This document shows, in pieces, positions 7,946 through 24,079 of a stretch of 64,000 bases of DNA. The position numbers and the translations under genes are program-made. This DNA is from a virus, in the IMG/VR virus record IMGVR_UViG_3300028392_000050, positions 23,294 through 87,293 of that record; one strand, 5' to 3'. Under the pieces are notes generated by a model, which worked only from the letters and a program-made list of their open reading frames with translations, searched no databases and was not told where the DNA came from. The stretch's first letter is position 1. Each line of letters starts with the position of its first letter.

Positions 7946-7946
7946 A

Positions 7947-7967
7947 TCTCTCTCTCTCTCTCTCTCT
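7947..7967. repeat. (TC)10 microsatellite
   Basis: pure TC run directly after the nrdJ stop codon. Confidence 0.9.
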
Positions 7968-12130: not shown

Positions 12131-13515
12131 TAGTTAGCCACCTCGTCTGCCTCAAGTGAAACATCAACAGCGATACCAAAGCCACTAGCAATACCAGCCT
12201 TAGCAGTATCAAAGACCAATTTAACAGCCTCTCGTTCATCATCAGAGAACGAGTTTAAATAGGTTTCTGTCGCATACTCAAGGTCTATGTTCTTTACATT
12301 TTTAACAAAAGCCTCAAGACCTCTGGTAGAGATAGGGGTATCTATCTCGCCTCGTTCGTGCTGTTCTCGCAACTGATTAGCAACCTCTAGCAAGGTAGCG
12401 TTTCCGATAAGTTTTTTCTCAATAGCCTTATCGTAACCAAACTCCCACTTGTGGGCAAACCTATCTTTCCACGCTTGGTTCATTGGGCGAGAGCCACGAT
12501 AGTTAGGGTTGTGGTCACCGATAACAACTAGGTCTGGGTGAGCCTTGATTACCTCACCACCATTTTCTAGCAGTTGGATTTCTCGTCTATCGTCTAGCAG
12601 ACCGAACAGAACTGTTGTAACTCGCTCTGGCATAAAATCTATTTCGTTTAATAGCAATACGCCACCATTACGAACTAGGTCTGTAACAGGTCCGTCTTGC
12701 CACTTAAACACGCCAGCCTGTTCTGTCGGTATCCACATACCGAATAGGTGGCTCGGCTCTAGTCCAATGTTGCTAGAGATGTTGTAGTAGCGATAGCCCC
12801 TAGAACTTGCCCAAGCGATAACACACATAGTCTTACCTGACCCAGCGTGACCTCTGATTAGTAGGTTCTGGTTATTTGCCTTGATGATGTCCAACATCTC
12901 AAAGTCCGTTCTGGTCTTGGTAATTTTGCGATTTAGGTAACGCTTAGCCCAAGAAATATCTGGCACGCTTGCCATTTCCATTTGTGCCTGTGGTCTTGCC
13001 ATAGTTGGTACTGGGGCTGGTGTTGTCGGGGCAGTCATTACAGGAACGAAAGCGACAGCCAACTCCTCGTCTGCCTCAACCTCAACTGGGGTAATCGGGT
13101 TAATGGTTACAGGGTTGGTTCTGCGATTATCAGACACATAGTTAGATAGGCTCTGGTCACCAGCGATTAGTCTGTCGGTTAGTTCTGTAATCCAAACCTG
13201 ATGTGCTTTGGCATTTTTTTCTGGGTTATACACATAGTCACCAGTAAGGTTGGTAAGCCTACTTGATAGGGCTGTTACATTTCCGTATTTGGCATTAAAT
13301 ACATCTGTGCTGTTGATAGCAACTGCGACAGGTAGGTTCTGTGCGACAGTCTGGGGCAAGGTAGTTACATCTGTGACCTTGTGCCAAGCCTGACCTCTGC
13401 CACGCTGTCCGTTAGATACTCGGTGAAATACTAAGACCTCACTCTCGGTTGGAACAATTAGGGTCTGTTCCTTTCCGTCTGTTACTGGGGTAGATACCAT
13501 AAGGGCAATACTCAT
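12130..13515 (-). CDS. MoxR/CobS/CbbQ-type AAA+ ATPase
   Basis: GHAGSGKT Walker A; LLLNEID Walker B variant; NPNYRG; DRF; STR. Confidence 0.9.
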   Translation of the reverse strand: MSIALMVSTPVTDGKEQTLIVPTESEVLVFHRVSNGQRGRGQAWHKVTDVTTLPQTVAQNLPVAVAINSTDVFNAKYGNVTALSSRLTNLTGDYVYNPEKNAKAHQVWITELTDRLIAGDQSLSNYVSDNRRTNPVTINPITPVEVEADEELAVAFVPVMTAPTTPAPVPTMARPQAQMEMASVPDISWAKRYLNRKITKTRTDFEMLDIIKANNQNLLIRGHAGSGKTMCVIAWASSRGYRYYNISSNIGLEPSHLFGMWIPTEQAGVFKWQDGPVTDLVRNGGVLLLNEIDFMPERVTTVLFGLLDDRREIQLLENGGEVIKAHPDLVVIGDHNPNYRGSRPMNQAWKDRFAHKWEFGYDKAIEKKLIGNATLLEVANQLREQHERGEIDTPISTRGLEAFVKNVKNIDLEYATETYLNSFSDDEREAVKLVFDTAKAGIASGFGIAVDVSLEADEVAN

Positions 13516-13800: not shown

Positions 13801-14060
13801 AAGTTCGCAAGGTAGCCCACATCTGGGCTTACCCCTGCCTCTCTTTCTGTATTGCTAGGCAGTAGCCTAGCCATTACCACAGTTTCGGCTATTTAGCAAG
13901 GATTATAACGAAATCGTTATAATCTCTCTATTCGGCTCATAGCATACTCTCTCTCTATAGTCAATAGGGTATCTCTCTCTGTTATGAAATCGTTATAACC
14001 AAGATTAACCGGCCGTTCTCTCTCTGTTAACCAGCTGTTTACTTTGGTGTGGTAAGCGTT

Positions 14061-14154
14061 TTGTTGCGTTGGTAGCCTTTTAGCCTTAACTATGCGATTG
14101 AGCGTAGCGAGCACGCACGGCACGGCTAAGGCTAAAAGGCTACCAACTCAACAA
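14061..14154. repeat. palindromic element 1 (12-mer arms flipped relative to elements 2-11)
   Basis: TTGTTGCGTTGGTAGCCTTTTAGCCTTA ... TAAGGCTAAAAGGCTACCAACTCAACAA; 28-bp arms, 1 mismatch. Confidence 0.9.
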
Positions 14155-14167
14155 TTTCGGGTATGCG

Positions 14168-14203
14168 AAAGCCCCCAAGCCAGAGAGGGGGCTTGGGGGC
14201 TTT
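14168..14203. terminator. intrinsic terminator-like hairpin
   Basis: AAAGCCCCCAAGCC...GGCTTGGGGGCTTT. Confidence 0.75.
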
Positions 14204-14262
14204 GGGCTGGTCACAGAAAGGGGAAAAAGACCAGCCTATAGCGAGGTGGGACAAATCACCTG

Positions 14263-14400
14263 CTAATTCTTATGTTTTCCTTGTCTATACCACTTTAGAA
14301 AGTCGGTGGCACAGGTAATACATAGAGCAGTTGGGGCTACAGTTGGGTCTGTAAGTTGTGTTTTACAGACAAAACACTTCTTACCAGTATAACTACCCAT
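14263..14400 (-). CDS. 45-aa Zn-ribbon protein (not in ORF track)
   Basis: MGSYTGKKCFVC...CITC; overlaps the upstream gene end. Confidence 0.6.
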   Translation of the reverse strand: MGSYTGKKCFVCKTQLTDPTVAPTALCITCATDFLKWYRQGKHKN

Positions 14401-14731
14401 TGTTATCTAGTTTCATCTTACTAGGGTCATAGATACCTAGCAAGGCGAGTAATTCATTAGGGGTCATTAGTAGAGCATAACACAGTTTAGGCAAGAAATA
14501 CAAAGGCATTGTGCCGTTTCCCTTGAGGTAATTGCCTACAGTTCCAGCAGTTACGCCAAAGTTATTACGCCTACAAAAGTCGGCTAGGGACTTATACCCT
14601 AGGCTCTTGTATCTAGCCTCTATTAGTTGTTGCTTACGCTTGCGTTCTTGGGTGTTCCAGTCGTAATAGGCTTGTATTTTCTCATAACGAGTTTCGGCTG
14701 GCTCATTTGGGTCATACTTCGGGTATTCCAT
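14393..14731 (-). CDS. XRE-family HTH regulator (paralog of 9322-9564)
   Basis: ARYKSLGYKSLADFC...LCYALLMTPNELL. Confidence 0.85.
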   Translation of the reverse strand: MEYPKYDPNEPAETRYEKIQAYYDWNTQERKRKQQLIEARYKSLGYKSLADFCRRNNFGVTAGTVGNYLKGNGTMPLYFLPKLCYALLMTPNELLALLGIYDPSKMKLDNNG

Positions 14732-14847
14732 TATTTACTCCTCATTGTAATTAGTCGTGCTTGTAGTCGGGATAGGGCAATAATGGCTTTACTTAGTAGC
14801 CTTATTGCTATGTGGCGTGGGCTTGGGTTGTATCTGTGCTTACTCAT
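14731..14847 (-). CDS. 38-aa basic peptide (not in ORF track)
   Basis: fills the gap, overlapping both neighbours. Confidence 0.45.
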   Translation of the reverse strand: MSKHRYNPSPRHIAIRLLSKAIIALSRLQARLITMRSK

Positions 14848-15559
14848 TACAGCACTCCAAGTTACAGTAACCACGCAAATCCATACCTAAAGCGTGGGTG
14901 ATTTCAGGCTCGTTCTCATAGAACTTATCGCCGTCTAGCCATTGAGCCTCATAAGCAAAGCAGTCGCTTTCGTCAATACTGGACAGGTTTATAGTGATGT
15001 CGGGGTATTGGCTAGCCAAGTGGTCTAATGCCTCTACTGGTGGTGACCACGCACTTTCTAGGTGATAGGTAATCTCTAGAGAAACTGGCATAGTATCTGG
15101 GTCAGTATCGCCCATCTCACCTGCGAGAATAGTAGGCATTTCATAGACAATAGAGGCTTCGTCTGTTATCTCCCACTTAGTTCCCCAGTTACGGCAGTTC
15201 CAGTTATACCAGTCGTCGCTGGTCTTGCGTTCCTCTAGTATCTTGACGAGAGCCTGATTAGCGTCAAAAGGCGTGCTGGTCTTATCAGCCTTGTCTATCT
15301 CTACCAAGTCAGGGTCAGCCTTTACAATGCTGTCAAAGGCTTTCTTACCCCTCTCTAGGTAGGTATCAAGGTTACTAGGCTTTACTATGTTCCATAGCAA
15401 GAATACTCCCTCAACCTGCTCGGCTGGGGTAGGTTCGCCTTTCCAGTTAGTTTCTCCAGCCCAAGGTGTAGTATAAGGCTTAGCAAGCCTATCCTTTATT
15501 GCCATTACTGTATCGTAGTCACCAACGATAGTGACTTTACTGCTAGCCCAATTCGGCAT
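14840..15559 (-). CDS. DUF1281/YubB (Api92-like) ferredoxin-like protein
   Basis: MPNW, WYNWNCRNWGTKW and SAWSPP motifs. Confidence 0.8.
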   Translation of the reverse strand: MPNWASSKVTIVGDYDTVMAIKDRLAKPYTTPWAGETNWKGEPTPAEQVEGVFLLWNIVKPSNLDTYLERGKKAFDSIVKADPDLVEIDKADKTSTPFDANQALVKILEERKTSDDWYNWNCRNWGTKWEITDEASIVYEMPTILAGEMGDTDPDTMPVSLEITYHLESAWSPPVEALDHLASQYPDITINLSSIDESDCFAYEAQWLDGDKFYENEPEITHALGMDLRGYCNLECCNE

Positions 15560-15666
15560 TAGTCGTTCTCCTCAATACAAGTGTGGTTATTCCAGTCTTG
15601 TTCGGCTGTGTCAGAATAGTTATCCACTATAAATCCACAATGGTTACATTTAGTCCAGCGTGCCAT
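15559..15666 (-). CDS. 35-aa Cys/His peptide (not in ORF track)
   Basis: CNHC...HTC; TAATG overlaps; GAGGAG RBS. Confidence 0.65.
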   Translation of the reverse strand: MARWTKCNHCGFIVDNYSDTAEQDWNNHTCIEEND

Positions 15667-15917
15667 TAGTCGTTCTCCTCTTTCTGTTTGATAAGGAACT
15701 CTAGGTCATCAGCAAGTTCATACCCAGTCTGGGTGAACTCAATGTGACCTGATAGTGTTTGCTGTGCCTCTCCAATGAACTCTGACCATACTCTCTCTAC
15801 ATCTGCTCTATCTAAGCCTGTATCTACAAAGTAGGTCTTGTCCCAATACTCCACAATGATTTCATCATCTAGAGCATTGTCTTTTAGTATCTGTGCGATT
15901 AGGTCTTTTACCTTCAT
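15666..15917 (-). CDS. acidic hypothetical early protein
   Basis: GAAAGGA RBS; first gene of its cassette. Confidence 0.8.
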   Translation of the reverse strand: MKVKDLIAQILKDNALDDEIIVEYWDKTYFVDTGLDRADVERVWSEFIGEAQQTLSGHIEFTQTGYELADDLEFLIKQKEEND

Positions 15918-15948
15918 CTCTCAATTCCTTTCTGTGAATTGTAATACG

Positions 15949-16026
15949 AGTTTATACCTATCTCTCTCTAAATAGCAACTCTCCTGCGTGTATTCCAGGT
16001 AAACATTAGATGAACAACAGGTGAAC
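15949..16026 (-). promoter_or_regulatory. early promoter: TAAACT -10 plus three 11-bp PHO-box-like repeats
   Basis: on - strand GTTCACC-tgtt-GTTCATC-taat-GTTTACC (16026-15998). Confidence 0.75.
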
Positions 16027-16033
16027 AGCCCTG

Positions 16034-16108
16034 CCAACTCAACAATTTAGCCATTTAGCCATCCGACGATCCGGAGAAGATGGCTAAATGGCTAAATTGT
16101 TGAGTTGG
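16034..16108. repeat. palindromic element 2
   Basis: CCAACTCAACAA(TTTAGCCA)2TC ... GA(TGGCTAAA)2TTGTTGAGTTGG. Confidence 0.95.
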
Positions 16109-16109
16109 G

Positions 16110-16150
16110 AAAGCCCCCTAGCGTGATGAATGAAACGCTAGGGGGCTTTT
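16110..16150. terminator. intrinsic terminator
   Basis: AAAAGCCCCCTAGCGT...ACGCTAGGGGGCTTTT. Confidence 0.85.
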
Positions 16151-16219
16151 ATGCCAGAGAACCAGTCTGGCTTGGGTTGAGGGGCTGGGCTGGGAGAACC
16201 AGCCCCTCAAGTCTGTTGG

Positions 16220-16780
16220 TTAGTCTACCTCTACCTCTGTGTCGGAAATGTCAAATCCGTAACCAGCCTCGTCAAGGTCGCTGTTGGTAACGGTAGCTTC
16301 GGCTGTAATGTTTAGGTCGCTCTCAATGTCGTCCCAGTCATAACCTCTAGGGGCTGTTACCTCTAGTGAGCCAGTAATGGTAATGTTTACTGTCTTAGTG
16401 ACTTCTGCCTCAATGTCAAAGATTTCGCATAGTTCGTCACGAACTTCCTCGTCAATGTCGTTCCAGTTGTCGTCAAGAAATGTCTCAAGTTTGGTGACTT
16501 TCCTGATTAGTTCCTGCCACTTCACATACCACTCTTGCTTTTCGGTTTCTAAGCTTTTTAGGTTTTTGTGTAGGTGAGTGAGTTCGTGGCGAATAGTTAC
16601 CTTGTCGCCCCCAGTTACCCAGCCGTTATCTATGTAGCCATAGAACTTTACTTCTAGGTCTAAGACATCTGCTAGTGGCTTTACTGGTGTTGTTGCTAGT
16701 TCGGTCAGACCTGCCTCTGCGAGTTTTTCCTCAACAGTTAGTTCTGGCTTTGGTTCTTGGTTCTCTTGGTTCTCATACAT
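16220..16780 (-). CDS. acidic coiled-coil early protein (start reassigned to MYENQ)
   Basis: AGAAAGAGAG RBS before ATG 16780; the longer ORF runs through regulatory DNA. Confidence 0.8.
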   Translation of the reverse strand: MYENQENQEPKPELTVEEKLAEAGLTELATTPVKPLADVLDLEVKFYGYIDNGWVTGGDKVTIRHELTHLHKNLKSLETEKQEWYVKWQELIRKVTKLETFLDDNWNDIDEEVRDELCEIFDIEAEVTKTVNITITGSLEVTAPRGYDWDDIESDLNITAEATVTNSDLDEAGYGFDISDTEVEVD

Positions 16781-16823
16781 AGTAATCTCTCTTTCTGTAG
16801 GTTGTGTATTGCTATGTATTACT

Positions 16824-16901
16824 ATTATGGCAGTTGGGGGTGGCAAAACCCAAATCCTAGAGGCAAACTCTAAGTAAAGCTTTTGTGAACAACAGGTAAA
16901 C
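16824..16901 (-). promoter_or_regulatory. early promoter: CATAAT -10 plus four phased 11-bp repeats
   Basis: units at 16862, 16873, 16884, 16895. Confidence 0.65.
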
Positions 16902-16908
16902 GGATCTC

Positions 16909-16975
16909 CCAACTCAACAAAGCCCAAAGCCCGATCTTTATTAGGGGCTTCGGGCTTTGGGCTTTGTTGAGTTGG
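16909..16975. repeat. palindromic element 3
   Basis: CCAACTCAAC(AAAGCCC)2GA ... TC(GGGCTTT)2GTTGAGTTGG. Confidence 0.95.
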
Positions 16976-16979
16976 CACG

Positions 16980-17020
16980 AAAAAACCCCCCAGCGAGAAC
17001 CTTGGGAGTTCGCTGGGGGG
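16980..17020 (-). terminator. intrinsic terminator
   Basis: GC stem CCCCCCAGCGA/TCGCTGGGGGG with U tract on - strand. Confidence 0.8.
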
Positions 17021-17059
17021 CTGGTATTATCGGGCTAGACACCAACACACCCGATAAGT

Positions 17060-17410
17060 CTAACTAGGCTGGTGAGCCTCTGGCTCTACCTCTACCCACT
17101 CGCCGTCTATGAACTGTTTTTCGTTCACTAACTCACTAATAGCCCCTGAGTATAGGTCATAGTAAAAGGCGTATAAATCAACCTTTTGTAAATCCTCTAT
17201 TGTTTCGGCACTGTCATAGCCAAACTCTTTCCACCTGTTTTGATACTCAAAGTCTAGGCTAGCCCAGTCTAATTGAATGTTAGCCGTATAAACTGGAACT
17301 GCTCCGTCGGCGTATTCGTGAGCGATGTCCTCGGGATAAGGTCGCCCTAAAATCCACTCTCGGTTATCCCAGATTTCTTGGTTGATTTCTGTTTCTGTCC
17401 AAAGTGCCAT
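17060..17410 (-). CDS. Ocr-like (T7 gp0.3) DNA-mimic anti-restriction protein
   Basis: 116 aa, acidic; DIAHEYADGAVPVYTANI resembles T7 Ocr DAIHMAADNAVPHYYADI. Confidence 0.7.
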   Translation of the reverse strand: MALWTETEINQEIWDNREWILGRPYPEDIAHEYADGAVPVYTANIQLDWASLDFEYQNRWKEFGYDSAETIEDLQKVDLYAFYYDLYSGAISELVNEKQFIDGEWVEVEPEAHQPS

Positions 17411-17459
17411 TTGCTGGTTCTCTCTTTCTGTTTGGTGTAGCCCCTTTGGCTACTCTCTT

Positions 17460-17526
17460 ATACTAATGCCACCTAATGACTTATTAGGTAGCGAGCTGAT
17501 GAATGTCAGGTTAATATTAGGTAAAC
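17460..17526 (-). promoter_or_regulatory. early promoter: TAGTAT -10 plus four phased 11-bp repeats
   Basis: units at 17487, 17498, 17509, 17520. Confidence 0.75.
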
Positions 17527-17533
17527 GGATCAA

Positions 17534-17610
17534 GCCAACTCAACAAAAGCCATTTAGCCAACCCTCTTATCTAGTGGGTGTTATGGCTAAATGGCTTTTG
17601 TTGAGTTGGC
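17534..17610. repeat. palindromic element 4
   Basis: GCCAACTCAACAAAAGCCATTTAGCCA ... TGGCTAAATGGCTTTTGTTGAGTTGGC. Confidence 0.95.
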
Positions 17611-17643
17611 AAAAACCCCCTAGCAAGTCAGGTTGCTAGGGGG
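17611..17643 (-). terminator. intrinsic terminator
   Basis: AAAAACCCCCTAGCAA...TTGCTAGGGGG. Confidence 0.8.
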
Positions 17644-17658
17644 CTGGTCTTTGCCGGT

Positions 17659-18024
17659 TTATCCGTAAGTCAGTTCACCGAAAATCGCATACTGGATAAC
17701 CATATCGCCAAAGCAAGCGTCAGCGTCCTCAATGTCTAGGGAGTAAGTGCCACAGTGCTTCTGCCCTGCGTTTAGAGCCAACTGGTATCCCTTTGCTAGT
17801 TGCGCTAGCGTAACGGTGTGCCACTTGTCTTCTTCCTCGTCATACAACTTAAAGTCCTGTGGGTTAGGCTCGTAGTCTGGCAAGTGCCAAAGGCTAATCT
17901 TGCTACCATCAGGCTTACGGATTTTACTCGCCCAGTAGGTAATACCTGCGCCATCACAGCCCCAGATACCTTCCCACAAATCATCAAGCGAAACCTCTAC
18001 GCTTACAGTGATTACCTCGCTCAT
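17659..18024 (-). CDS. phage hypothetical protein (DxxxQxxxFGExxYG C-terminus)
   Basis: ORF; recurrent phage early-protein motif. Confidence 0.8.
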   Translation of the reverse strand: MSEVITVSVEVSLDDLWEGIWGCDGAGITYWASKIRKPDGSKISLWHLPDYEPNPQDFKLYDEEEDKWHTVTLAQLAKGYQLALNAGQKHCGTYSLDIEDADACFGDMVIQYAIFGELTYG

Positions 18025-18131
18025 TAGTATCCTGCCTTTTCTAGAATAGCAAGCACAGTATCTACCTGCTCGTCGGTTAGTTTCTCTATTGCTTCGGTGT
18101 TGATTACACTCTCGCCGAATAGATTTTCCAT
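18024..18131 (-). CDS. 35-aa acidic peptide (not in ORF track)
   Basis: MENLFGESVINTEAIEK...; conserved GAGAGAACCA RBS. Confidence 0.75.
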   Translation of the reverse strand: MENLFGESVINTEAIEKLTDEQVDTVLAILEKAGY

Positions 18132-18174
18132 TGGTTCTCTCTTTCTTTTAGGTAGCCCTTTTGGCTACATACTC

Positions 18175-18240
18175 ACTCTATACCACAGGCGACCAGACAA
18201 GGTAGCCGGTGAGTAAATGGCAAATGAACGTTAGGTGAAC
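18175..18240 (-). promoter_or_regulatory. early promoter: TAGAGT -10 plus four phased 11-bp repeats
   Basis: units at 18201, 18212, 18223, 18234. Confidence 0.75.
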
Positions 18241-18246
18241 AAAGCA

Positions 18247-18321
18247 GCCAACTCAACAAATAGCCAACAGCCATACATCCGATCAGGATTAGTATGGCTG
18301 TTGGCTATTTGTTGAGTTGGC
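18247..18321. repeat. palindromic element 5
   Basis: GCCAACTCAACAAATAGCCAACAGCCATAC ... GTATGGCTGTTGGCTATTTGTTGAGTTGGC. Confidence 0.95.
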
Positions 18322-18323
18322 AT

Positions 18324-18362
18324 AAAAAAGCCCCAGAGCGAAAGGGGGGTCGCTCTGGGGCT
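18324..18362 (-). terminator. intrinsic terminator
   Basis: AAAAAAGCCCCAGAGCGA...TCGCTCTGGGGCT. Confidence 0.8.
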
Positions 18363-18389
18363 GTGGTTAGAGTAGGGAAATGAGAGAAC

Positions 18390-18644
18390 CTACTCTAAGT
18401 TTGTTTCGTTGTTTAGTATGTAAAGCACATACAAAGTTTCTGTTTTTTCTGTATGAACAAAAGTATACTTAGGAAACTTTCTGCGTAAATAAGTTATTTC
18501 GGTTCGCTTTACAGGGTTATTGTAAATAGCCCATTGGTTCGGGTGTTTTGTAAGTTCTGTTAGAAACGGCTCAATGTTTCTAATAGTGCTTCCTGCTCTG
18601 CCTTTTTTTGGAACTAGGCTTTCGTCAATAAACTTGATTTCCAT
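18390..18644 (-). CDS. hypothetical protein
   Basis: GAGGAGG RBS; TAATG overlap. Confidence 0.75.
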   Translation of the reverse strand: MEIKFIDESLVPKKGRAGSTIRNIEPFLTELTKHPNQWAIYNNPVKRTEITYLRRKFPKYTFVHTEKTETLYVLYILNNETNLE

Positions 18645-18838
18645 TAGTTTTCCTCCTCATTTTCGCCAAAGGCTTCTCTGGCTTCTTCCATTAGACCCAT
18701 AGCATCTCGTAACGCTTGGTCTAGGCTGGTGAAACCCTGTATCCTAATCGGCTCAATAGGTTCTAAGCCTTTGTAGTCGTTACAGGTTGGGCATACTGCT
18801 TGCTCGGTGTGTGTTCCGTCAAATACACAAACGCTCAT
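18644..18838 (-). CDS. small Cys/His protein
   Basis: C...H...CPTC; overlap packing. Confidence 0.75.
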   Translation of the reverse strand: MSVCVFDGTHTEQAVCPTCNDYKGLEPIEPIRIQGFTSLDQALRDAMGLMEEAREAFGENEEEN

Positions 18839-19116
18839 TAGTTCTCCTCATCCTCGATAATGGTGTTATTGGTGTTGTCTGGCTCGTCGTGAGGTTCGCC
18901 ACACTCATCACATTTTTCTTCACGACACTCAAAGCAAGAGCCGTCTAGGTCTAGTTCTCGTTCGCAACCTCCACAGACCTCTTCGAAGTCGATAGACTCG
19001 GTGCCAGAGTAGTAAGAGTTCAGGTCAGACAAAAACGCCTTCTCTGCCTCTTCTTGTGTGTTGCCTTCTACTACACCCTCGTATTCATAGAGGGCTTTGA
19101 TTTTGTAAAATGCCAT
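18838..19116 (-). CDS. acidic Cys-rich protein (start reassigned to MAFY)
   Basis: three CxxC motifs; conserved GAGAGAACCAA RBS. Confidence 0.75.
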   Translation of the reverse strand: MAFYKIKALYEYEGVVEGNTQEEAEKAFLSDLNSYYSGTESIDFEEVCGGCERELDLDGSCFECREEKCDECGEPHDEPDNTNNTIIEDEEN

Positions 19117-19166
19117 TTGGTTCTCTCTTTCGTTTCTCATTTATGTAGCCTTTTGACTACTCTCTA

Positions 19167-19232
19167 ATACTAGGGTATAGGGCACGCCCACAGGTAGCCG
19201 TCAGGTAAAAGCCAGATGAACAACAGATGAAC
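19167..19232 (-). promoter_or_regulatory. early promoter: TAGTAT -10 plus four phased 11-bp repeats
   Basis: units at 19193, 19204, 19215, 19226. Confidence 0.75.
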
Positions 19233-19240
19233 AGATCGCC

Positions 19241-19307
19241 CCAACTCAACAAACAACAGCCAGCCAGCTTTTATATAGCTTTGGCTGGCTGTTGTTTGTT
19301 GAGTTGG
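19241..19307. repeat. palindromic element 6
   Basis: CCAACTCAACAAACAACAGCCAGCCA ... TGGCTGGCTGTTGTTTGTTGAGTTGG. Confidence 0.95.
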
Positions 19308-19311
19308 CAAG

Positions 19312-19347
19312 AAAAAGCCCCCCTGCTCCTAGATTTAGCAGGGGGGC
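19312..19347 (-). terminator. intrinsic terminator
   Basis: AAAAAGCCCCCCTGCT...AGCAGGGGGGC. Confidence 0.8.
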
Positions 19348-19388
19348 GGTGTTGGCGAGGGGATGAATGGAAACCTCACCAAGTCTAT

Positions 19389-19757
19389 TTAGTCCTCGCC
19401 GAAGAACTCCTCGGCTGTGAGGGTGTGAGAGCGTTGAGTTTCTTTGATACGCTCCTGCTCATCACGCTCCTTAACTAACGCCTCAATTTCGGTGTAATAG
19501 TGTTCTTGGTAATAAATCCAGAGGTCAAGGTGCATTAGGGTATAAATGCTGTCTGGCAGAGTGTCGGTCATTTCATTAAACCTATTTAGATACTCAGTAG
19601 GTAATGAGCGCCACTCGTCTAGGATTTCACTGTGCCACACTGGCACGCCACTATCGGCGTATTCACCTGCCAAGTCTTGTGGATAAGTCTGCTCCAATAG
19701 GTATTCTTTATCAGCTAAGATTTCTGCCTTAAACTGCTCTGGTGTATAAAGTGCCAT
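19389..19757 (-). CDS. second Ocr-like DNA mimic (paralog of 17060-17410)
   Basis: MALYT...YPQDLAGEYADSGVPVW...DLWIYY aligns with MALWT...YPEDIAHEYADGAVPVY...DLYAFY. Confidence 0.7.
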   Translation of the reverse strand: MALYTPEQFKAEILADKEYLLEQTYPQDLAGEYADSGVPVWHSEILDEWRSLPTEYLNRFNEMTDTLPDSIYTLMHLDLWIYYQEHYYTEIEALVKERDEQERIKETQRSHTLTAEEFFGED

Positions 19758-19805
19758 TTTGTAGTTCTCTTTCTCTCAATTTGTAGCCCCTTTGACTACT
19801 CTCTA

Positions 19806-19872
19806 ACTCTACACCCCTAGGGGGACTTACTAGGTAGCGACGAGGTGAATGTCAAATGAACAGCAAGTGAAC
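19806..19872 (-). promoter_or_regulatory. early promoter: TAGAGT -10 plus four phased 11-bp repeats
   Basis: units at 19833, 19844, 19855, 19866. Confidence 0.75.
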
Positions 19873-19880
19873 AGATCGCT

Positions 19881-19950
19881 CCAACTCAACAAAGCCACAA
19901 AGCCATACACCGATCTAGGTAAGTATGGCTTTGTGGCTTTGTTGAGTTGG
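19881..19950. repeat. palindromic element 7
   Basis: CCAACTCAA(CAAAGCCA)2TAC ... GTA(TGGCTTTG)2TTGAGTTGG. Confidence 0.95.
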
Positions 19951-19956
19951 CATAAG

Positions 19957-19987
19957 AAAACTCCCCTGCCAGTTTCGGCAGGGGAGT
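19957..19987 (-). terminator. intrinsic terminator
   Basis: AAAACTCCCCTGCC...GGCAGGGGAGT. Confidence 0.8.
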
Positions 19988-20007
19988 CCTTTTCTTGAGA
20001 GAGAAAC

Positions 20008-20586
20008 TTATCCCTCGACCTCGAGCAATACCTCGAAGCCGTATGCGTCTTTTATCCAATCAGCGTTTAGCGTGAATAACTTTTCTACAACCTCAGAATA
20101 ACCGAAATCTTCATCAGTAATCCACTCAGTTCTAGTTTCGCCGTCATTGGCAGTAAATACCTTAGCGTATTCTACGCTAACCCGATAAACCTCACCAGCG
20201 AACCTAGCGTCAAAATCCTCAGCGACAGACTCTAATCCCTTAGCATTCCATTCCTTTCTCAAGTCATAGATAACCATTGTGTGCCATTCGCCTTGACTAA
20301 ATCCCTTTAGTCCATAGATAAGGAACGGAATACCCTCGCCTGTGAAGTAATCGCTAACGGCGTCCTCAATTAGAGTGCCGTCCGAAACAATTTCCTCAAT
20401 TTCAGTCTTGGCGTCATCATCAGTGGAATAACGGGTGAAGTTGTTTGGAGCGTGGAGTGTCTGAACGCCTAAGCCAATATTGCGAGCAACCTGATCGATA
20501 GTGTCATAGTCCTCTTCATAATCAGCAACAACTCTCACGCTTGGGCTAATTTGGAATACTTGTTCTCTTTTTGTTTCTACTAACAT
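20008..20586 (-). CDS. acidic hypothetical early protein
   Basis: 192 aa; KGFSQGEW and GEVY motifs. Confidence 0.8.
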   Translation of the reverse strand: MLVETKREQVFQISPSVRVVADYEEDYDTIDQVARNIGLGVQTLHAPNNFTRYSTDDDAKTEIEEIVSDGTLIEDAVSDYFTGEGIPFLIYGLKGFSQGEWHTMVIYDLRKEWNAKGLESVAEDFDARFAGEVYRVSVEYAKVFTANDGETRTEWITDEDFGYSEVVEKLFTLNADWIKDAYGFEVLLEVEG

Positions 20587-20637
20587 AATTACTACTCTCT
20601 CTTGTGAGCAAGTCCTCTGTGCCTTGCTTCACTTACT

Positions 20638-20702
20638 ACAATACACCACGCCAAGCGTGTTAGCTAAACGCTAGGTTGATGTTAGGTGAACACTAGGTGA
20701 AT
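20638..20702 (-). promoter_or_regulatory. early promoter with four phased 11-bp repeats
   Basis: units at 20663, 20674, 20685, 20696; candidate -10 TATTGT. Confidence 0.7.
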
Positions 20703-20708
20703 AAGCCT

Positions 20709-20783
20709 GCCAACTCAACAAATTAGCTAATTAGCCGATCTAAGGTTACACCGGCGGCTAATTAGCTAATTTGTTGAGTTGGC
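20709..20783. repeat. palindromic element 8
   Basis: GCCAACTCAACAAATTAGCTAATTAGCCG ... CGGCTAATTAGCTAATTTGTTGAGTTGGC. Confidence 0.95.
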
Positions 20784-20788
20784 GCAAA

Positions 20789-20824
20789 GTTCACCCACTG
20801 TTCATCTCTGAACAGCAGGTGAAC
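20789..20824. promoter_or_regulatory. inverted pair of PHO-box-like doublets in the usual terminator position
   Basis: GTTCACC-cact-GTTCATC ... TGAAC-agca-GGTGAAC. Confidence 0.6.
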
Positions 20825-20836
20825 TCTGGCTGAACT

Positions 20837-21130
20837 TTAGTCCTCTGCTGGCACGCCGTTCTGGTAGTCCTCAATGCTGTCGTAAGATACGCCCTCAACT
20901 CTAATTGCCCCGTGGCTGTGGATGAGGTAATCAGTTTCACTTGACATCATAAGAACTTGCTGGAGGTTAGCAATTAGAGTTCTAGCCGCTTCACGGGTAA
21001 TCTCAACCTGAACTGCTGACGGCTGAACTAGCCCGTCCTCTAGGTGATAGAGGTTGCGAATGGTTAGGCTAATGTCAGCGTTTCCAGTGTGTCTGCTATC
21101 ATTTAGCAGGATGTTAGTTTCTACTCTCAC
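20837..21130 (-). CDS. hypothetical early protein
   Basis: GTG start after AGAAAGAGAACCAA RBS. Confidence 0.75.
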   Translation of the reverse strand: MRVETNILLNDSRHTGNADISLTIRNLYHLEDGLVQPSAVQVEITREAARTLIANLQQVLMMSSETDYLIHSHGAIRVEGVSYDSIEDYQNGVPAED

Positions 21131-21180
21131 TTGGTTCTCTTTCTATTTTGGGCAAACTCTCTTGGTTTGCCTCACTTACT

Positions 21181-21270
21181 AACTTACAGGATTACACCTA
21201 AACAATAGGTATTAGTTTGATGAACGGCAGATGAATTAAGAATTAACCTGCTGTTAACCTAGGGTTCACC
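21181..21270. promoter_or_regulatory. early promoter (TAAGTT -10) with 11-bp repeats in both orientations
   Basis: units at 21197, 21208, 21219, 21230; opposite-strand ATTAACC/GTTAACC/GTTCACC at 21242-21270. Confidence 0.7.
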
Positions 21271-21277
21271 CCCCGTT

Positions 21278-21340
21278 CAACTCAACAAAATAGCTGGCAA
21301 CAAACAACGTTGCCTAGCTATTTTAAATTGTTGAGTTGGC
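21278..21340. repeat. palindromic element 9 (bulged)
   Basis: CAACTCAACAAAATAGCTGGCAAC ... GTTGCCTAGCTATTTTAAATTGTTGAGTTGGC. Confidence 0.88.
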
Positions 21341-21344
21341 GGCT

Positions 21345-21373
21345 GTTCACCAAAAGTTCATCTAATGTTAACT
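21345..21373 (+). promoter_or_regulatory. three PHO-box-like 11-bp repeats
   Basis: GTTCACC-aaaa-GTTCATC-taat-GTTAACT. Confidence 0.65.
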
Positions 21374-21416
21374 TTCCCCGAAGGGAGGAGGGCTGGTTTC
21401 CCAGCCCTCCTGTTTG

Positions 21417-21776
21417 CTAAGCTTCTAGCCCTGCGATTACCTGTTCTTTGGTATCTGTTGGTTCTACCCCTGGCTTGCTGTAATCAGCAAGTAGGCAATC
21501 CTCATCACAGATAACTCTAACCTGTGCCCTGCTCCACAGCCCTTGGTGAGTATTACACCACCAATCAAATCCGTCTGCCTTGTCGCCTGTAAAGTAATCG
21601 CTTAGGTTTCTGTCCAAGGCTGGTATCCAAATTTCTGGGAATTTCCAAGGCTTTTCCAAGGCATAAGTATCAAACTTTAAACCTCGTGCCTTGTAAGCGT
21701 TTAGAATTGAGCCGATTAGGTTGAGTAGTTCTAATGAACCTAGTTCATCAATTCTTTCTAGATAACTTTTTTCCAT
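21417..21776 (-). CDS. hypothetical early protein
   Basis: AAGGA RBS. Confidence 0.75.
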   Translation of the reverse strand: MEKSYLERIDELGSLELLNLIGSILNAYKARGLKFDTYALEKPWKFPEIWIPALDRNLSDYFTGDKADGFDWWCNTHQGLWSRAQVRVICDEDCLLADYSKPGVEPTDTKEQVIAGLEA

Positions 21777-21836
21777 TTGTTTGTCCTTCTTGTTTGGAGG
21801 TTTGGGGGAGGTTGCCCTCCCCCGTCGCCTGTTTGA

Positions 21837-22103
21837 TTAGTTAGTTCTAGTGGTTAGGGAAATTGGAAATTGTGAGTAAGTTCCCTCAGTACAATAGGTT
21901 AGTTTTCCCCAAGGTGTGTGGATAGAGTAGTTGTATCCCTCGCAGTTAGGCTCGTGGTTCTTGTCGCAGTTTGTCTCCAAGTCAATTTTTACGGGTTCTA
22001 CAAACTCAATGTGGTTATTTTCCCAAATTGCCATTACATAGCCATACCATAGTTCATTTTCTGGTCCAGAGGTAATGTGTTGTTCGGTAATTCTAATTTC
22101 CAT
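21837..22103 (-). CDS. hypothetical early protein
   Basis: GAGAGAACCAAA RBS. Confidence 0.75.
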   Translation of the reverse strand: MEIRITEQHITSGPENELWYGYVMAIWENNHIEFVEPVKIDLETNCDKNHEPNCEGYNYSIHTPWGKLTYCTEGTYSQFPISLTTRTN

Positions 22104-22154
22104 TTTGGTTCTCTCTCTAATCTGGAGAGGTTCTCTTGCCCTCTCTCAATTACT

Positions 22155-22232
22155 ACATTACAGGATACTTATTTGGATCTATACCAATTCAGATGAACGT
22201 CAGGTAAATTAATTGTTCACCTAATGTTCACC
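22155..22232. promoter_or_regulatory. early promoter (TAATGT -10) with 11-bp repeats in both orientations
   Basis: GATGAAC 22192, GGTAAAT 22203; GTTCACC 22215 and 22226. Confidence 0.7.
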
Positions 22233-22241
22233 TAACCCCCC

Positions 22242-22330
22242 GCCAACTCAACAATTTATGGCAACGAAGTTGCCTATAAATTGTCAAAAAAGCCTGTTAG
22301 CTATGCTACAGGCTTTTTTGTTGAGTTGGC
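22242..22330. repeat. palindromic element 10 (branched, two inner hairpins)
   Basis: conserved arms enclose ACAATTTATGGCAAC/GTTGCCTATAAATTGT and CAAAAAAGCCTGT/ACAGGCTTTTTTG. Confidence 0.9.
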
Positions 22331-22375
22331 AAGGCTTAGCCAGCCGGGGTCTCCGGCTGGCTTGCCTAATCCCTC

Positions 22376-22705
22376 CTAGTGTCCTGACTTGTAGAGTTCT
22401 AGATACTGCTCAATGGCTTGGAGCAAAGCGTTGTGGTTGCCCTCGTAGCGTTCCACTAGATACGCAAAACGCTTAGCCCAAAGTTTGCGGCGTTCGTCTT
22501 GGATGTAGTAAACGGCAGCTGAATAGCCCTGCTCCTCTAGAGTGTGGTAGCCGACATCTTCGCAAGTCCAGCAAGCGTTTTCCATGTCGTAGCCAGCAGT
22601 GAACTTGCCGTGGCAGCAAGAGCCTTGGGCGATACGCTCACGCAAGTATGCGATTTGAGCGTTCTTGACGGCAATGGCTTCACGGGCGATTTGTGCGTTT
22701 AGCAT
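22376..22705 (-). CDS. hypothetical early protein
   Basis: GAGAGAACCAA RBS; CCH...CWTC. Confidence 0.75.
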   Translation of the reverse strand: MLNAQIAREAIAVKNAQIAYLRERIAQGSCCHGKFTAGYDMENACWTCEDVGYHTLEEQGYSAAVYYIQDERRKLWAKRFAYLVERYEGNHNALLQAIEQYLELYKSGH

Positions 22706-22749
22706 TTGGTTCTCTCTACACCCACGCCCCTTGCGTGGTGTGTCCTCTC

Positions 22750-22838
22750 AGTCTAGCAACCTAGAAATAGATCACCCTCTCTCTAAGATGAACACTTGGC
22801 AAACAACTTAGATCATTTTTATTCATCTAATGTTCACC
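22750..22838. promoter_or_regulatory. early promoter (TAGACT -10) with 11-bp repeats
   Basis: GATGAAC 22787, GGCAAAC 22798; ATTCATC 22821, GTTCACC 22832. Confidence 0.7.
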
Positions 22839-22845
22839 TAGGGGC

Positions 22846-22940
22846 CCAACTCAACAAAGGCTATTGACAGCAAAGCTGCCTAATAGCCTTATAATACCTA
22901 GGCTATGTATATCATAGCCAGGTATTATTGTTGAGTTGGC
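22846..22940. repeat. palindromic element 11 (branched, two inner hairpins)
   Basis: arms enclose AAGGCTATT/AATAGCCTT and ATAATACCT-GGCTATG/CATAGCC-AGGTATTAT. Confidence 0.9.
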
Positions 22941-23009
22941 GAGGGTCTCCTCTGCTCCCCGAGAACGCCAAGACCAGCCCCCATCGCTGGGGGCTGGCTG
23001 GCTGATTAC

Positions 23010-23255
23010 TTACATAACTTTGTGTCCGCAATCACACTTTTCATCGTGGTCGCCACCCAGTGAGCCTTCTGGCAAGCCTAGACTACGCTCCAACAAGTCT
23101 AGCCCAGTCCAGAAGGACTCACGCCATCCTGGGCTGTCATCCCAGTCCTGTTGGTGATAGTAGTCTAGAGCATACTCTATCTCGTTCACTAACTGATTAG
23201 CGGTTTTTGTAATTGGCTGGTCGGATAGGGTTGCCCAGATTTGTTCTTTTATCAT
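23010..23255 (-). CDS. hypothetical early protein
   Basis: AAGGA RBS; ATGA overlap. Confidence 0.7.
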   Translation of the reverse strand: MIKEQIWATLSDQPITKTANQLVNEIEYALDYYHQQDWDDSPGWRESFWTGLDLLERSLGLPEGSLGGDHDEKCDCGHKVM

Positions 23256-23356
23256 TTTGTGTCCTTATCTATTAGGTGATCTTGTGTGTATTGGTAAAGC
23301 CTGCCTAGTAAAAATGATACTACTAAGCCTAGTACTACAAGCCAGTGTGTTGGCAT
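23252..23356 (-). CDS. 34-aa membrane peptide (not in ORF track)
   Basis: MPTHWLVVLGLVVSFLLG...; AAAGGA RBS. Confidence 0.65.
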   Translation of the reverse strand: MPTHWLVVLGLVVSFLLGRLYQYTQDHLIDKDTK

Positions 23357-23415
23357 TTGTTTGTCCTTTGTTTAGGGGTTCAGGGGGGGATTGCTCCCCC
23401 CCGTCGCCTGTTTGT

Positions 23416-23610
23416 TTATTCTGCTGGTTCTACTTTAGCCAAGGTGATTAGTACTGTGATTAGTTCTTGGCGTTCTGCTGGTGTTAGTTCCAATGCGATT
23501 TCCACAACTGTACCAGAGCCGTTAGCCCCGAGAGTGTGAACTAGCAGGTTGAACATTCCCTTGTCGCCGAAGGTGAAACCCCCGAAGGTATAACGCTTTA
23601 CATTTTCCAT
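23416..23610 (-). CDS. first gene of the leftward early region (start reassigned to MENV)
   Basis: AAAGGGG RBS; follows the largest repeat array. Confidence 0.7.
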   Translation of the reverse strand: MENVKRYTFGGFTFGDKGMFNLLVHTLGANGSGTVVEIALELTPAERQELITVLITLAKVEPAE

Positions 23611-23655
23611 TTTGTTGCCCCTTTGTTTTGTGTGAGCCTTGTTGCTCACAAATAC

Positions 23656-23777
23656 AGACTAAGGCTCTTAGGTAAACAAACAATGCTAGTTAGGTGAACG
23701 TCAGGTGAACAATTCCAAGATCGTTAGGTTAACAGCAGGTGAACAGGGGGGGTAGGTTAGGTGAACGCCAGGTAAAC
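23656..23777 (-). promoter_or_regulatory. early promoter (TAGTCT -10) with the largest PHO-box-like array
   Basis: GGTGAAC/GGTAAAC/GGTTAAC units at 23671, 23693, 23704, 23727, 23738, 23760, 23771 (spacings 22, 11, 23, 11, 22, 11). Confidence 0.8.
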
Positions 23778-23868
23778 AGGCCGGCAGGACGCAGATACGA
23801 TTGACGACCCAAAAAAGTTAGGCAGTAGCCTAACTTCGTGCCCAAAGGGCGGGGGGAGGCGGCGCAGC

Positions 23869-23907
23869 CGTTACGGCTTCGTTACCAAATCGTTACTAAA
23901 TCGTTAT
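23869..23907 (+). promoter_or_regulatory. four CGTTAY direct repeats at 11-bp period (MtrA/GlnR-type box)
   Basis: CGTTAC 23869, 23880, 23891; CGTTAT 23902. Confidence 0.6.
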
Positions 23908-24079
23908 AATTCAAATCACCACGTGCTATGCAAACTGTATTAAATATTTGATTATCTCTTTGTTTTAATAGGAATACCTATTTAGCAGTGCTAGCTGCGC
24001 CGCCCTATGCAAAAATTACCCTCTGGATATTCTCAGCAATTAATGCTATAATCACCCACTTATCATTTATACTAAAGTA

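Follow-up and report, generated by a model that had tools for sequence, protein, structure and literature searches.

Repeated early-gene cassettes with PHO-type box arrays and clamped palindromes in a putative freshwater actinophage

What fires, and what separates, the many small leftward genes in the early region of an uncultured virus, IMG/VR record IMGVR_UViG_3300028392_000050? The window analysed here (64,000 nucleotides, bases 23294–87293 of the 87,293-bp record) carries, between its positions 14,061 and 23,777, approximately 11 self-contained expression cassettes on the minus strand, with one to three small genes in each and six in the innermost, accompanied by long palindromes with constant arms and by direct repeats at an 11-bp period. 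A preliminary description made from the sequence had taken this array for a modular system of repeated early-gene cassettes, a view that our analysis upholds, though the units are less uniform than described. The reading we favour, to which we assign a rough probability of 0.55, is that these are early cassettes resembling the promoter/stem-loop (PeSL) cassettes of T4-type phages, fired by a host response regulator, with the clamped palindromes serving as boundary and recombination joints.

The direct repeats carry the first part of this reading. The minus strand of positions 14001–23800 contains 29 boxes of the form [AG]TT[ACT]A[CT][CT]T, with 12 pairs spaced at 11 nt, 4 at 22 nt and 3 at 33 nt, compared with 41 plus-strand and 54 minus-strand boxes in the other 77.5 kb of the genome, where one single pair lies at 11 nt; the 11-bp period claimed earlier is therefore a property of the array. 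These arrays fill the −35 region, and consensus sigma-70 −35/−10 sites are not enriched (13, compared with 14.8 ± 4.2 expected). In the passages cited, the PhoP unit of Streptomyces coelicolor is an 11-nt direct repeat with the consensus G(G/T)TCAYYYR(G/C)G and the core GTTCAY, present as two to eight units near the −35 position of its promoters (PMC2275107). The 21 phased boxes of the window agree with this consensus at a mean of 8.5 of 11 positions, and at 7.05 of the first 8, compared with 4.15 ± 1.56 for random 11-mers, the consensus being that of S. coelicolor. Pairs within the arrays supply the two or more consecutive 11-nt units by which a PHO box is recognised.

The identity of the boxes was examined further by scanning 185,579 species genomes for the exact double box GTTCACCTNNNGTTCACCT, which gave at least 120 loci. 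Among the 80 matches listed, 68 are from Actinomycetota by title, and five are from genomes of Ca. Nanopelagicales, Planktophila or Nanopelagicus, four of them at 41–46% GC and one with a locus of 58%, with the early region of the phage itself lying at 44–47%. Nine of 12 loci were examined for the open reading frame (ORF) just downstream, two others lacking, within 400 nt, any ORF that reaches 80 aa and one 83-aa ORF being omitted; the nine encode PhoU (two), a PHO4 transporter (one), a PstS-like PBP_like_2 protein (one), ABC permeases (three) and Peripla_BP_6 proteins (two). The three permeases, all from Nanopelagicales, are probably PstC. The same double box thus stands ahead of phoU, pst and pit genes of actinobacteria, and the agreement with both the PhoP consensus and the boxes ahead of freshwater-actinobacterial Pho-regulon genes bears out the earlier assignment of the repeats to response-regulator (PHO-type) sites. 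Given this motif similarity, the promoters may be gated by a host signal. Profile searches of the phage genome itself found neither an OmpR-type DNA-binding domain (Trans_reg_C) nor a sigma-70 region 2. The boxes of the window resemble published actinobacterial PHO boxes, 11-bp direct repeats that share the core GTTCAY and come in runs of two to eight (PMC2275107), and those of relatives resemble the PhoR and MtrA sites of Corynebacterium glutamicum (PMC3353115). They differ in belonging to a lytic phage rather than to a cellular regulon and in standing, as predicted sites, at each of eleven early promoters in succession. None of the publications listed by our literature search describes boxes of PHO or MtrA type at the early promoters of actinophages.

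A host of this kind agrees with what the genome says of the phage. The ends of the record share a 114-bp overlap, indicating a circular assembly, and the record encodes a large terminase (TerL), a portal and a tail sheath, as well as a ribonucleotide reductase, a queuine-tRNA-ribosyltransferase-like protein and a pair comprising a CobS/CobT-like AAA ATPase and a VWA protein. TerL is 54% identical to that of Streptomyces phage BRock and the AAA ATPase 43% identical to proteins of Gordonia phages. A WhiB-family gene lies at genome positions 17534–17731, outside the window, and exceeds the cut-off in a profile search (E-value 4e-12) that just one of 14 control genomes also exceeded. The sequencing runs that contain the phage DNA are freshwater metagenomes, with no RNA run listed among them. 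Given the WhiB gene, the actinophage protein relatives and the freshwater origin, we read the phage as an uncultured freshwater actinophage and the array as its early-gene region. The same gene and relatives, together with the genome scan, led us to drop a cyanobacterial Pho box (CTTAACCT) as the model for the repeats. No DNA match to a cultured phage was found among 50,697 phage records by megablast of positions 14000–24000 or blastn of positions 15900–19400, and a tRNA scan found no tRNA gene in the window.

The second part of the reading concerns the palindromes. Eleven of them, 63–94 bp long with the arms CCAACTCAACAA and TTGTTGAGTTGG, lie within positions 14061–22939. At no more than one mismatch CCAACTCAACAA has 24 matches in the window, compared with 0.40 expected (a maximum of 3 in 100 shuffles), and 22 of the 24 pair up as 11 inverted pairs in this interval, so that the long constant-arm palindromes described between the units are confirmed; of the 20 exact copies of the arm present in the whole 87,293-bp genome, none lies outside the array stretch. 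Folding energies range from −32 to −57 kcal/mol, with z-scores of −8.9 to −14.0. A motif search of viral databases, as the preliminary description had proposed, was run on IMG/VR by pattern scans and a protein-anchored scan and gave 85 pattern hits, from which 11 singletons on unrelated contigs, without inner pairing, were discarded as chance. The family comprises 71 single-hairpin palindromes and 3 double-hairpin forms, kept apart, in 20 contigs, with lengths of 62–96 bp. Their arms follow the pattern TTGTT-NN-GTTGG / CCAAC-NN-AACAA, forming a 12-bp clamp in which the central NN is near-uniform within a contig (GA in the window; GG in 5 of 5, AC in 5 of 5 and AG in 3 of 3 in three other contigs). 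Two arm polarities occur, the window form CCAAC..AACAA-stem-TTGTT..GTTGG and an opposite form that is commoner in distant relatives, with the inner stem keeping the same orientation in both.

The palindrome pattern is absent from all 301 genomes of a candidate host order, the standard form with the exact arms of the window has no match in the 185,579 species genomes, and in four candidate host genomes the arm 12-mer occurs about as often as expected by chance (13, compared with 9 for the control). All 37 Rfam 15 matches up to E = 1 fall below the gathering thresholds and are mostly generic microRNA-precursor hairpins. No publication on the clamped palindrome was found, no literature search dedicated to it having been made. 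In Gordonia phage ScarletRaider, the region upstream of the AAA ATPase holds no palindrome of the clamped family; three intergenic regions there (10929–11895), ahead of the ATPase, share a different start-associated repeat, ...CTTTCATGTTTCACCAA..., with AAGGAACGCGA just before the start codon. In many related IMG/VR contigs the assembly stops no more than a few hundred bases ahead of the ATPase gene, and the breaks in Logan contigs coincide with palindromes; as repeated modules fragment short-read assemblies, the family is probably under-sampled.

Whether the palindromes work as DNA or as RNA can be judged from their stems. These are mostly 25–31 bp (mode 26–27), and 1920 of 1958 stem cells are Watson–Crick (98.1%), with 9 G–T pairs compared with 29 other mismatches. 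Stem positions 13–24 are 95–100% paired at an entropy of 0.7–1.9 bits, and 56 distinct inner 12-mers occur among the 71 palindromes. Against a relative of ~90% identity the arms are 100% conserved whilst the inner stems are swapped symmetrically, and in the palindrome at 16034 the centre alone is replaced, the new one resembling the centre of the palindrome at 16909. The compensatory pairing that the preliminary description saw in diverged sequence is confirmed in these inner stems and in one terminator stem, and its conclusion that selection, rather than recent duplication, explains the likeness of the units holds on the compensated changes and on perfect pairing in hypervariable stems. An inner stem beginning AGCCCAAAGCCC is shared by three genomes, between different cassettes, the core of palindrome 9 is near-identical throughout in one relative (G005), and in orthologous units two relatives carry the asymmetric loop centre in opposite orientations.

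Palindromes acting as RNA, as read-through hairpins cut by RNase III or protecting 3′ ends, would suit their position between co-directional genes, their very stable predicted stems and the presence of a canonical terminator ahead of just about half of them. RNase III sites also lie between the early genes of T7. However, selection on an RNA structure should leave an excess of wobble pairs, of which the 9 G–T pairs give no sign, and for this reason we take the palindromes to be DNA-level elements; moreover, a double-stranded RNA substrate needs no sequence-invariant arms, both arm polarities carry the same inner-stem orientation, loop centres invert between orthologous units, the palindrome lies past the terminator where one exists, and no Rfam family exceeds its threshold. 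We consider an RNA role highly improbable.

The relatives that share the palindromes also bear on the boxes. In the passages cited, the MtrA site of Corynebacterium glutamicum is (A/G)TAACAATttn(A/G)TAACAAT and its optimal PhoR site is CCTGTGAAaatCCTGTGAA (PMC3353115). Ten contigs of the palindrome family carry (A/G)TAACGATTTG(A/G)TAACG at the same place and 11-bp period, which fits the MtrA site, and one carries CCTGTGAATTCCCTGTGAA, equal to the optimal PhoR site, so that the boxes of relatives are of the CCTGTGAA-n3-CCTGTGAA and (A/G)TAACAAT-n3 types. A strictly phased pair of boxes of one class lies within 75 nt of 52 of the 74 palindromes (51 on one flank, one on both), compared with 93 of 2000 random 75-nt windows of the same loci, and no contig mixes box classes beside its palindromes. 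Among orthologous cassettes, those of the 186-aa gene at 16220–16780 and of the innermost operon, for example, carry boxes of PHO type in the window but of MtrA type in IMGVR_UViG_3300032242_001752. Since relatives keep the architecture but carry MtrA- or Corynebacterium PhoR-type boxes, the regulator input appears to be a swappable module.

The same diversity could, however, point away from the host. If the phased boxes were the target of a protein that the phage itself specifies and either delivers with its DNA or makes early, such as an early-gene repressor or shut-off factor, their likeness to host sites would be a convergence on the 11-bp helical repeat. The use of three box classes by relatives with the same palindrome arms, the occurrence of boxes that are inverted or upstream of some palindromes, and a helix-turn-helix (HTH)-like protein encoded in the conserved innermost operon would all suit such a binder. 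Against it, the phage genome has no OmpR-type winged helix, and an identical HTH stretch is present in the window phage, with PHO-type boxes, and in G005, with MtrA-type boxes. Furthermore, each of the three box classes agrees with an actinobacterial regulator motif established by experiment, Pho genes of candidate hosts are marked by the exact double box, and promoters lacking a −35 need a factor at time zero. We regard a phage-specified binder as rather unlikely and prefer a host regulator.

Two attempts to read the arm itself as a regulator site were abandoned. As a distal MtrA half-site, CTAACAAG stands in 11-bp register with the boxes in some opposite-polarity units (by eye), and the idea fails for the standard polarity, as the arm adjoining the boxes is inverted there; TTAGGTTGG as an IdeR half-site and TTGTT as a DnaA box are too weak and wrongly spaced.

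A further possibility, compatible with the reading we favour and likewise rather improbable, is that the 12-bp arms are operators or roadblocks for a sequence-specific binder, similar to stoperators or to the dyad of Cluster O phages, which would insulate cassettes or shut off the early region, with the palindromic spacer secondary. The arms are invariant within a genome and vary between genomes at two central positions only, and the box array (boxes of the form GTTCAYCT) begins a fixed 7–8 nt past the right arm in 7 units. The HTH-like protein (14393–14731) also differs in its helix between lineages with different arms, and was considered as the arm reader; it was set aside, as the difference follows phylogeny, from which the correlation is inseparable. 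The arm-to-arm spacing, with lengths of 63–94 bp, shows no helical phasing, which led us to reject looping between arms, and a plain operator pair has no need of a spacer kept perfectly palindromic.

If the palindromes are DNA elements, do cassettes change places at them? ORF clustering across six genomes shows that cassette content and order differ, with several cassettes unique. The genes of families F11, F12 and F13 form one cassette here, whereas two relatives split them as [F12 ..] and [F11 F45]; family F9 has two copies here and one elsewhere, and F4 is partnered with F5 here and with F41 elsewhere. Contigs from four freshwater runs, compared with the stretch at 88% likeness and with some sides below 30, so that they may be related strains or repeats, contain cassette-skipping joints that end at repeated modules. 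These comprise a joint from 21369 to 23365 (two runs, side 42), one end of which adjoins a second type of junction module, from 19128 to 19963 (one run, side 45), from 22234 to 22873 (two runs, side 24), and from 17445 to 19791, the last lying between the leaders of two F9 paralogues and deleting the intervening cassettes in a co-occurring variant. In the proposed check of whether cargo genes are swapped at element boundaries in relatives, content and order vary and joints fall at the modules, with breaks also found in leaders and inside cassettes, where the second junction, a hairpin plus ribosome site, is itself a break-point.

On these grounds we tentatively propose, as a possibility that falls short of an even chance, that the clamped palindromes are DNA-level boundary elements where recombination would swap cassettes, regulator-input modules and palindrome cores. 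A bolder version, which we consider distinctly doubtful, would make the array a recombinase-independent or new-recombinase platform, with clamped cruciform palindromes as the sites of exchange and a phage protein, co-evolving with the central dinucleotide, as their reader; whole cassettes and, separately, their regulator-input modules would change places there, and lineages could re-plug their entire early programme into PhoP, MtrA or PhoR-type regulators according to host and nutrient regime.

A mobile-cassette system, in which the palindromes would be integron attC-like or miniature inverted-repeat transposable element (MITE)-like sites and a recombinase would move cassettes or palindromes, draws on some of the same evidence. 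Integron attC sites have an imperfect stem with extrahelical bases, an unpaired central spacer and RYYYAAC/GTTRRRY core sites. As in integrons, co-oriented cassettes are here arrayed and each bounded by a palindrome of similar length (62–96 bp), conserved at its ends and variable in its centre; within the arms lie ACTCAAC and GTTGAGT (by eye), which fit the attC core, cassette order differs among relatives, and the central dinucleotide of the arm is genome-specific. The core-site fit is low in information, however, and the GT variant of relatives does not fit. No tyrosine recombinase (PF00589) was found at E ≤ 1 in the complete phage genome, a search whose control matched in 14 of 14 genomes, so that the phage is without an integrase; the stems are 98.1% Watson–Crick, with neither extrahelical bases nor an unpaired spacer, and every cassette has its own promoter, with terminators likewise carried by cassettes. 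In contrast to MITEs and repetitive extragenic palindrome (REP)-like repeats, all copies lie in the early array, no target-site duplication was seen at the flanks (by eye), and the arm and palindrome searches of host-order and species genomes described above found no dispersed copies. A mobile-cassette system is therefore very unlikely in our estimation.

How uniform are the units between box and gene? The preliminary description had a TAnnnT −10 in constant register, a shared 5′ hairpin, a common ribosome-binding leader motif and usually a GC terminator, and each of these holds for part of the array. The −10 is constant in four units (those of the palindromes at 19881, 19241, 18248 and 17535), where TAGAGT or TAGTAT lies 19–20 nt past the fourth box and is followed by AGAGAG; in the other units a TAnnnT lies 23–37 nt away (by eye). 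The leader hairpin GTAGYCAAARG with CTAC is found in the same four units, with different hairpins in the others. The leader motif AGAGAGAACC is exact in five units and present as variants elsewhere, and since the other genes of the genome mostly use ordinary AGGAG-type ribosome sites, it marks the early cassettes. A GC hairpin (ΔG −23.6 to −27.9) with at least five T in the last 12 nt directly precedes 5 of the 11 palindromes, a sixth having 4 T and the remainder either a hairpin that lacks a T run or a weak hairpin, so that the terminator claim was about half right. Sequence prediction gives 20 terminator-like sites, compared with 10.2 ± 3.3.

Taken together, these parts suggest the following course of events. 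Three to four PHO-type repeats at an 11-bp period, then a TAnnnT −10, would stand in place of a −35, and a PhoP-type regulator of the host (OmpR/PhoB family) would recruit host RNA polymerase at each cassette, as motif, position and host-genome context imply. Early expression would then track the phosphate-starvation state of the host, a state that is commonly ‘on’ where lakes are poor in phosphorus. Speculatively, the 5′ hairpin could form with the AGAGAGAACC leader a common post-transcriptional handle, for stability or as a target of later shut-off, and the predicted intrinsic terminators would isolate the cassettes. The palindrome would work on DNA, as a hairpin or cruciform, rather than on RNA, and its clamp may be read by some factor.

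Several observations weigh against this account. Peripla_BP_6 proteins, which are not obviously phosphate genes, stand behind 2 of the 9 double boxes, and the three ABC permeases are no more than probable PstC proteins. The fourth box lies 19–20 nt from the −10 in just four units, with the geometry varying elsewhere, and repression is conceivable in place of activation. No strictly phased box pair accompanies 22 of the 74 palindromes. Differing box classes in close relatives, whose hosts are probably similar, would also fit phage-specified factors, and a lytic phage would run a risk in making every early promoter depend on a starvation regulator. With regard to exchange, events inside cassettes and in leaders mean that the palindrome is not the sole joint, and most joints come from contigs of 88% likeness with short sides, which could be relatives or repeats.

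The array is described here in the direction of transcription, all of its features lying on the minus strand. Upstream of it, four MtrA-type boxes, (A/G)TAACG, occupy 23869–23907 at an exact 11-bp period (starts 23907, 23896, 23885 and 23874). The outermost promoter (23670–23777) has seven PHO-type boxes (GTTCACCT, GTTTACCT, GTTAACCT) and no palindrome, as the preliminary description stated, followed by a −10, TAGTCT, at 23661–23656 and a leader hairpin, GTGAGC..GCTCAC, at ~23649–23632 (both by eye). It would serve the genes of cassette 0 (23010–23610), which encode 64 aa (23416–23610), 34 aa (23252–23356) and 81 aa (23010–23255), the two tested having no PHROG match. Palindrome 1 (22846–22939, 94 bp) has a double-hairpin form inside its arms and precedes cassette 1 (22376–22839), with inverted boxes at 22839–22821, a forward box at 22793–22786, AGAGAGAACC at 22717–22708 and a gene at 22376–22705 (109 aa). 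Palindrome 2 (22243–22329, 87 bp), also of double-hairpin form, is followed by cassette 2 (21417–22233), with boxes at 22233–22191, AGAGAGAACC at 22116–22107 and genes at 21837–22103 (88 aa) and 21417–21776 (119 aa). Palindrome 3 (21277–21339, 63 bp) has one arm, TCAACTCAACAA at 21277–21288, with one mismatch to the consensus, and leads into cassette 3 (20837–21260), with boxes at 21260–21229 and a gene at 20837–21130 (97 aa, GTG start). Ahead of palindrome 4 (20710–20782, 73 bp) convergent boxes form a hairpin instead of a terminator; cassette 4 (20008–20702) has boxes at 20702–20662 and a gene at 20008–20586 (192 aa).

From this point predicted intrinsic terminators recur. The one at 19951–20000 has a 13-bp GC stem and seven T in its last 12 nt, and is followed by palindrome 5 (19881–19950, 70 bp) and cassette 5 (19389–19872), with four phased boxes at 19872–19832, a TAGAGT −10, a leader hairpin at 19799–19783 and a gene at 19389–19757 (122 aa). 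A terminator at 19308–19357 and palindrome 6 (19241–19307, 67 bp) precede cassette 6 (18390–19232), which has boxes at 19232–19192, a hairpin at 19160–19145, AGAGAGAACC at 19128–19119 and genes at 18838–19116, 18644–18838 and 18390–18644. Next come a terminator at 18321–18370, palindrome 7 (18248–18320, 73 bp) and cassette 7 (17659–18240), with boxes at 18240–18200, a hairpin at 18168–18152, AGAGAGAACC at 18142–18133 and genes at 18024–18131 (35 aa) and 17659–18024 (121 aa; phrog_2355, of unknown function). The terminator at 17610–17659, whose stem has compensated changes relative to the relative G003, stands before palindrome 8 (17535–17609, 75 bp) and cassette 8 (17060–17526), with boxes at 17526–17486, a hairpin at 17453–17437, AGAGAGAACC at 17425–17416 and a gene at 17060–17410 (116 aa). 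A terminator at 16976–17025 is followed by palindrome 9 (16909–16975, 67 bp), the first 12 inner-stem bases of which recur in G005 and in another relative, G004, and by cassette 9 (16220–16901), with boxes at 16901–16861 and the 186-aa gene at 16220–16780. Palindrome 10 (16034–16108, 75 bp), with a terminator hairpin ahead at 16109–16158, precedes the innermost cassette (14263–16026), with boxes at 16026–15997 and genes at 15666–15917, 15559–15666, 14840–15559 (DUF1281_C), 14731–14874, 14393–14731 (HTH-like) and 14263–14400. Palindrome 11 (14061–14154, 94 bp) closes the series with the opposite arm order, TTGTTGAGTTGG...CCAACGCAACAA, one arm being mismatched; this is the commonest type in distant relatives. 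Beyond it, at 13915–13996, MtrA-type boxes (ATAACG/ATAACA) and repeated TAGAGAGAG motifs, conserved in relatives, stand ahead of the AAA-ATPase/VWA operon (12130–13515 and 10061–12130).

A conserved AGGCTACTGCCT-type hairpin follows the MtrA-type boxes at both ends of the array (23811–23907 and 13850–13996, minus strand), with a T run at 23836–23811, and recurs near 13870–13850 and in relatives; such units may produce a short transcript or act as an attenuator. The repeated TAGAGAGAG motifs, with CCTATTGACTATAGAGAGAGAGTATGCTATG, at 13925–13990 (minus strand) ahead of the AAA-ATPase operon look like a promoter class of their own. For CCTATTGACTATAGAGAGAG at ~13,955 a T7-like promoter was considered and found no support, a search for a single-subunit RNA polymerase (PF00940) having given no match with a control that also matched nowhere, which makes the search uninformative. 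The second junction module, at 23357–23415 and 21777–21836 (minus strand) inside cassettes, consists of a AAACAGGCGACGGGGG..CCCCC hairpin followed by AAACAAGGACAAACAAATG, and links genes without a promoter. The divergent rightward operon, which starts at 24080, has an ordinary extended −10 promoter, TG-n-TATAAT, at 24024–24052 (plus strand, 10 of 12 matches), in contrast to the box-dependent leftward promoters.

The cargo itself is largely nondescript. Of 20 cassette proteins compared with PHROG at E ≤ 0.01, 15 match no family and four match families of unknown function, whilst the 112-aa protein of 14393–14731 matches HTH repressor or regulator families weakly (E = 0.003); the earlier suggestion of anti-defence genes finds no support either way, and that of stepwise DNA entry has none in these data. 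Pfam adds DUF1281_C alone, on the 239-aa protein of 14840–15559. The proteins of 17060–17410 (116 aa) and 19389–19757 (122 aa) are paralogous acidic proteins in separate cassettes.

Amongst described systems, the closest are the PeSL cassettes of T4-type phages, and the likeness to these drawn in the preliminary description is supported by the differing content and order of cassettes among relatives. As far as the cited passages go, PeSLs have sigma-70 −35/−10 promoters, an AT-rich upstream region and a short GC stem-loop; both systems have repeated modules of a terminator (here a predicted one) and an early promoter flanking small ORFan genes in a plastic early region, and in both the limits of the indels and replacements that distinguish relatives fall in these modules (PMC2839356, PMC4122927). 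In contrast to PeSLs, response-regulator box arrays here replace the −35, so that strong sigma-70-like promoters are wanting, and a separate perfect palindrome of 62–96 bp with a 12-bp clamp lies between terminator and promoter; the host, moreover, is actinobacterial. For the regulator part, the nearest precedent would be PhoB control in cyanophages, with Zeng and Chisholm (2012) reported to have described host PhoB control of auxiliary phosphate genes such as pstS. Phage genes carry sites of a host phosphate two-component regulator in both cases, but the genes there are reportedly auxiliary, whereas here the whole early programme would be involved, with relatives rewired to other regulators. 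Control of cyanophage genes by host PhoB also appears in the part of the literature cited (PMC10976474).

The start-associated sequences (SAS) and extended start-associated sequences (ESAS) of Cluster K mycobacteriophages and the Cluster O repeat are analogues at most, not relatives, of the clamped palindrome. In the passages cited, ESAS are inverted repeats with variable non-palindromic spacers of 4–13 bp and the Cluster O dyad is a 17-bp repeat, genome-wide and mostly not at promoters; they share with our element that they are short actinophage repeats at gene starts or intergenic sites, conserved across unrelated genes and of unknown function (PMC3203893, PMC4351075). Their sequences are unrelated, however, and the long perfect palindrome here is confined to the early array. 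The combination of PHO-type early cassettes with constant-arm palindromes was not found described.

Elsewhere in the window, a DpdA-like protein of the queuine-tRNA-ribosyltransferase family (4318–5760, plus strand) suggests possible 7-deazaguanine DNA modification, and a type IV prepilin-peptidase-like protein is encoded at 8128–8604 (minus strand). A (GA)n run of ~11 units (7946–7966, minus strand) lies just past the ribonucleotide reductase gene, at the meeting point of the leftward early/middle block and the convergent rightward block.

If the reading favoured here is true, the whole early programme of a lytic phage would be wired to the nutrient-sensing two-component systems of its host, with related phages rewired to others. 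Infection success in phosphorus-poor lakes would then be tied to starvation signalling in the dominant freshwater actinobacteria, for whose phages molecular biology is nearly absent. The box arrays would offer a sequence-based marker of host and physiology for uncultured actinophages, and the clamped palindromes, as a family-wide DNA element, would provide a tractable case for asking by what means long palindromes are kept in phage genomes and whether gene shuffling is organised by cruciforms.

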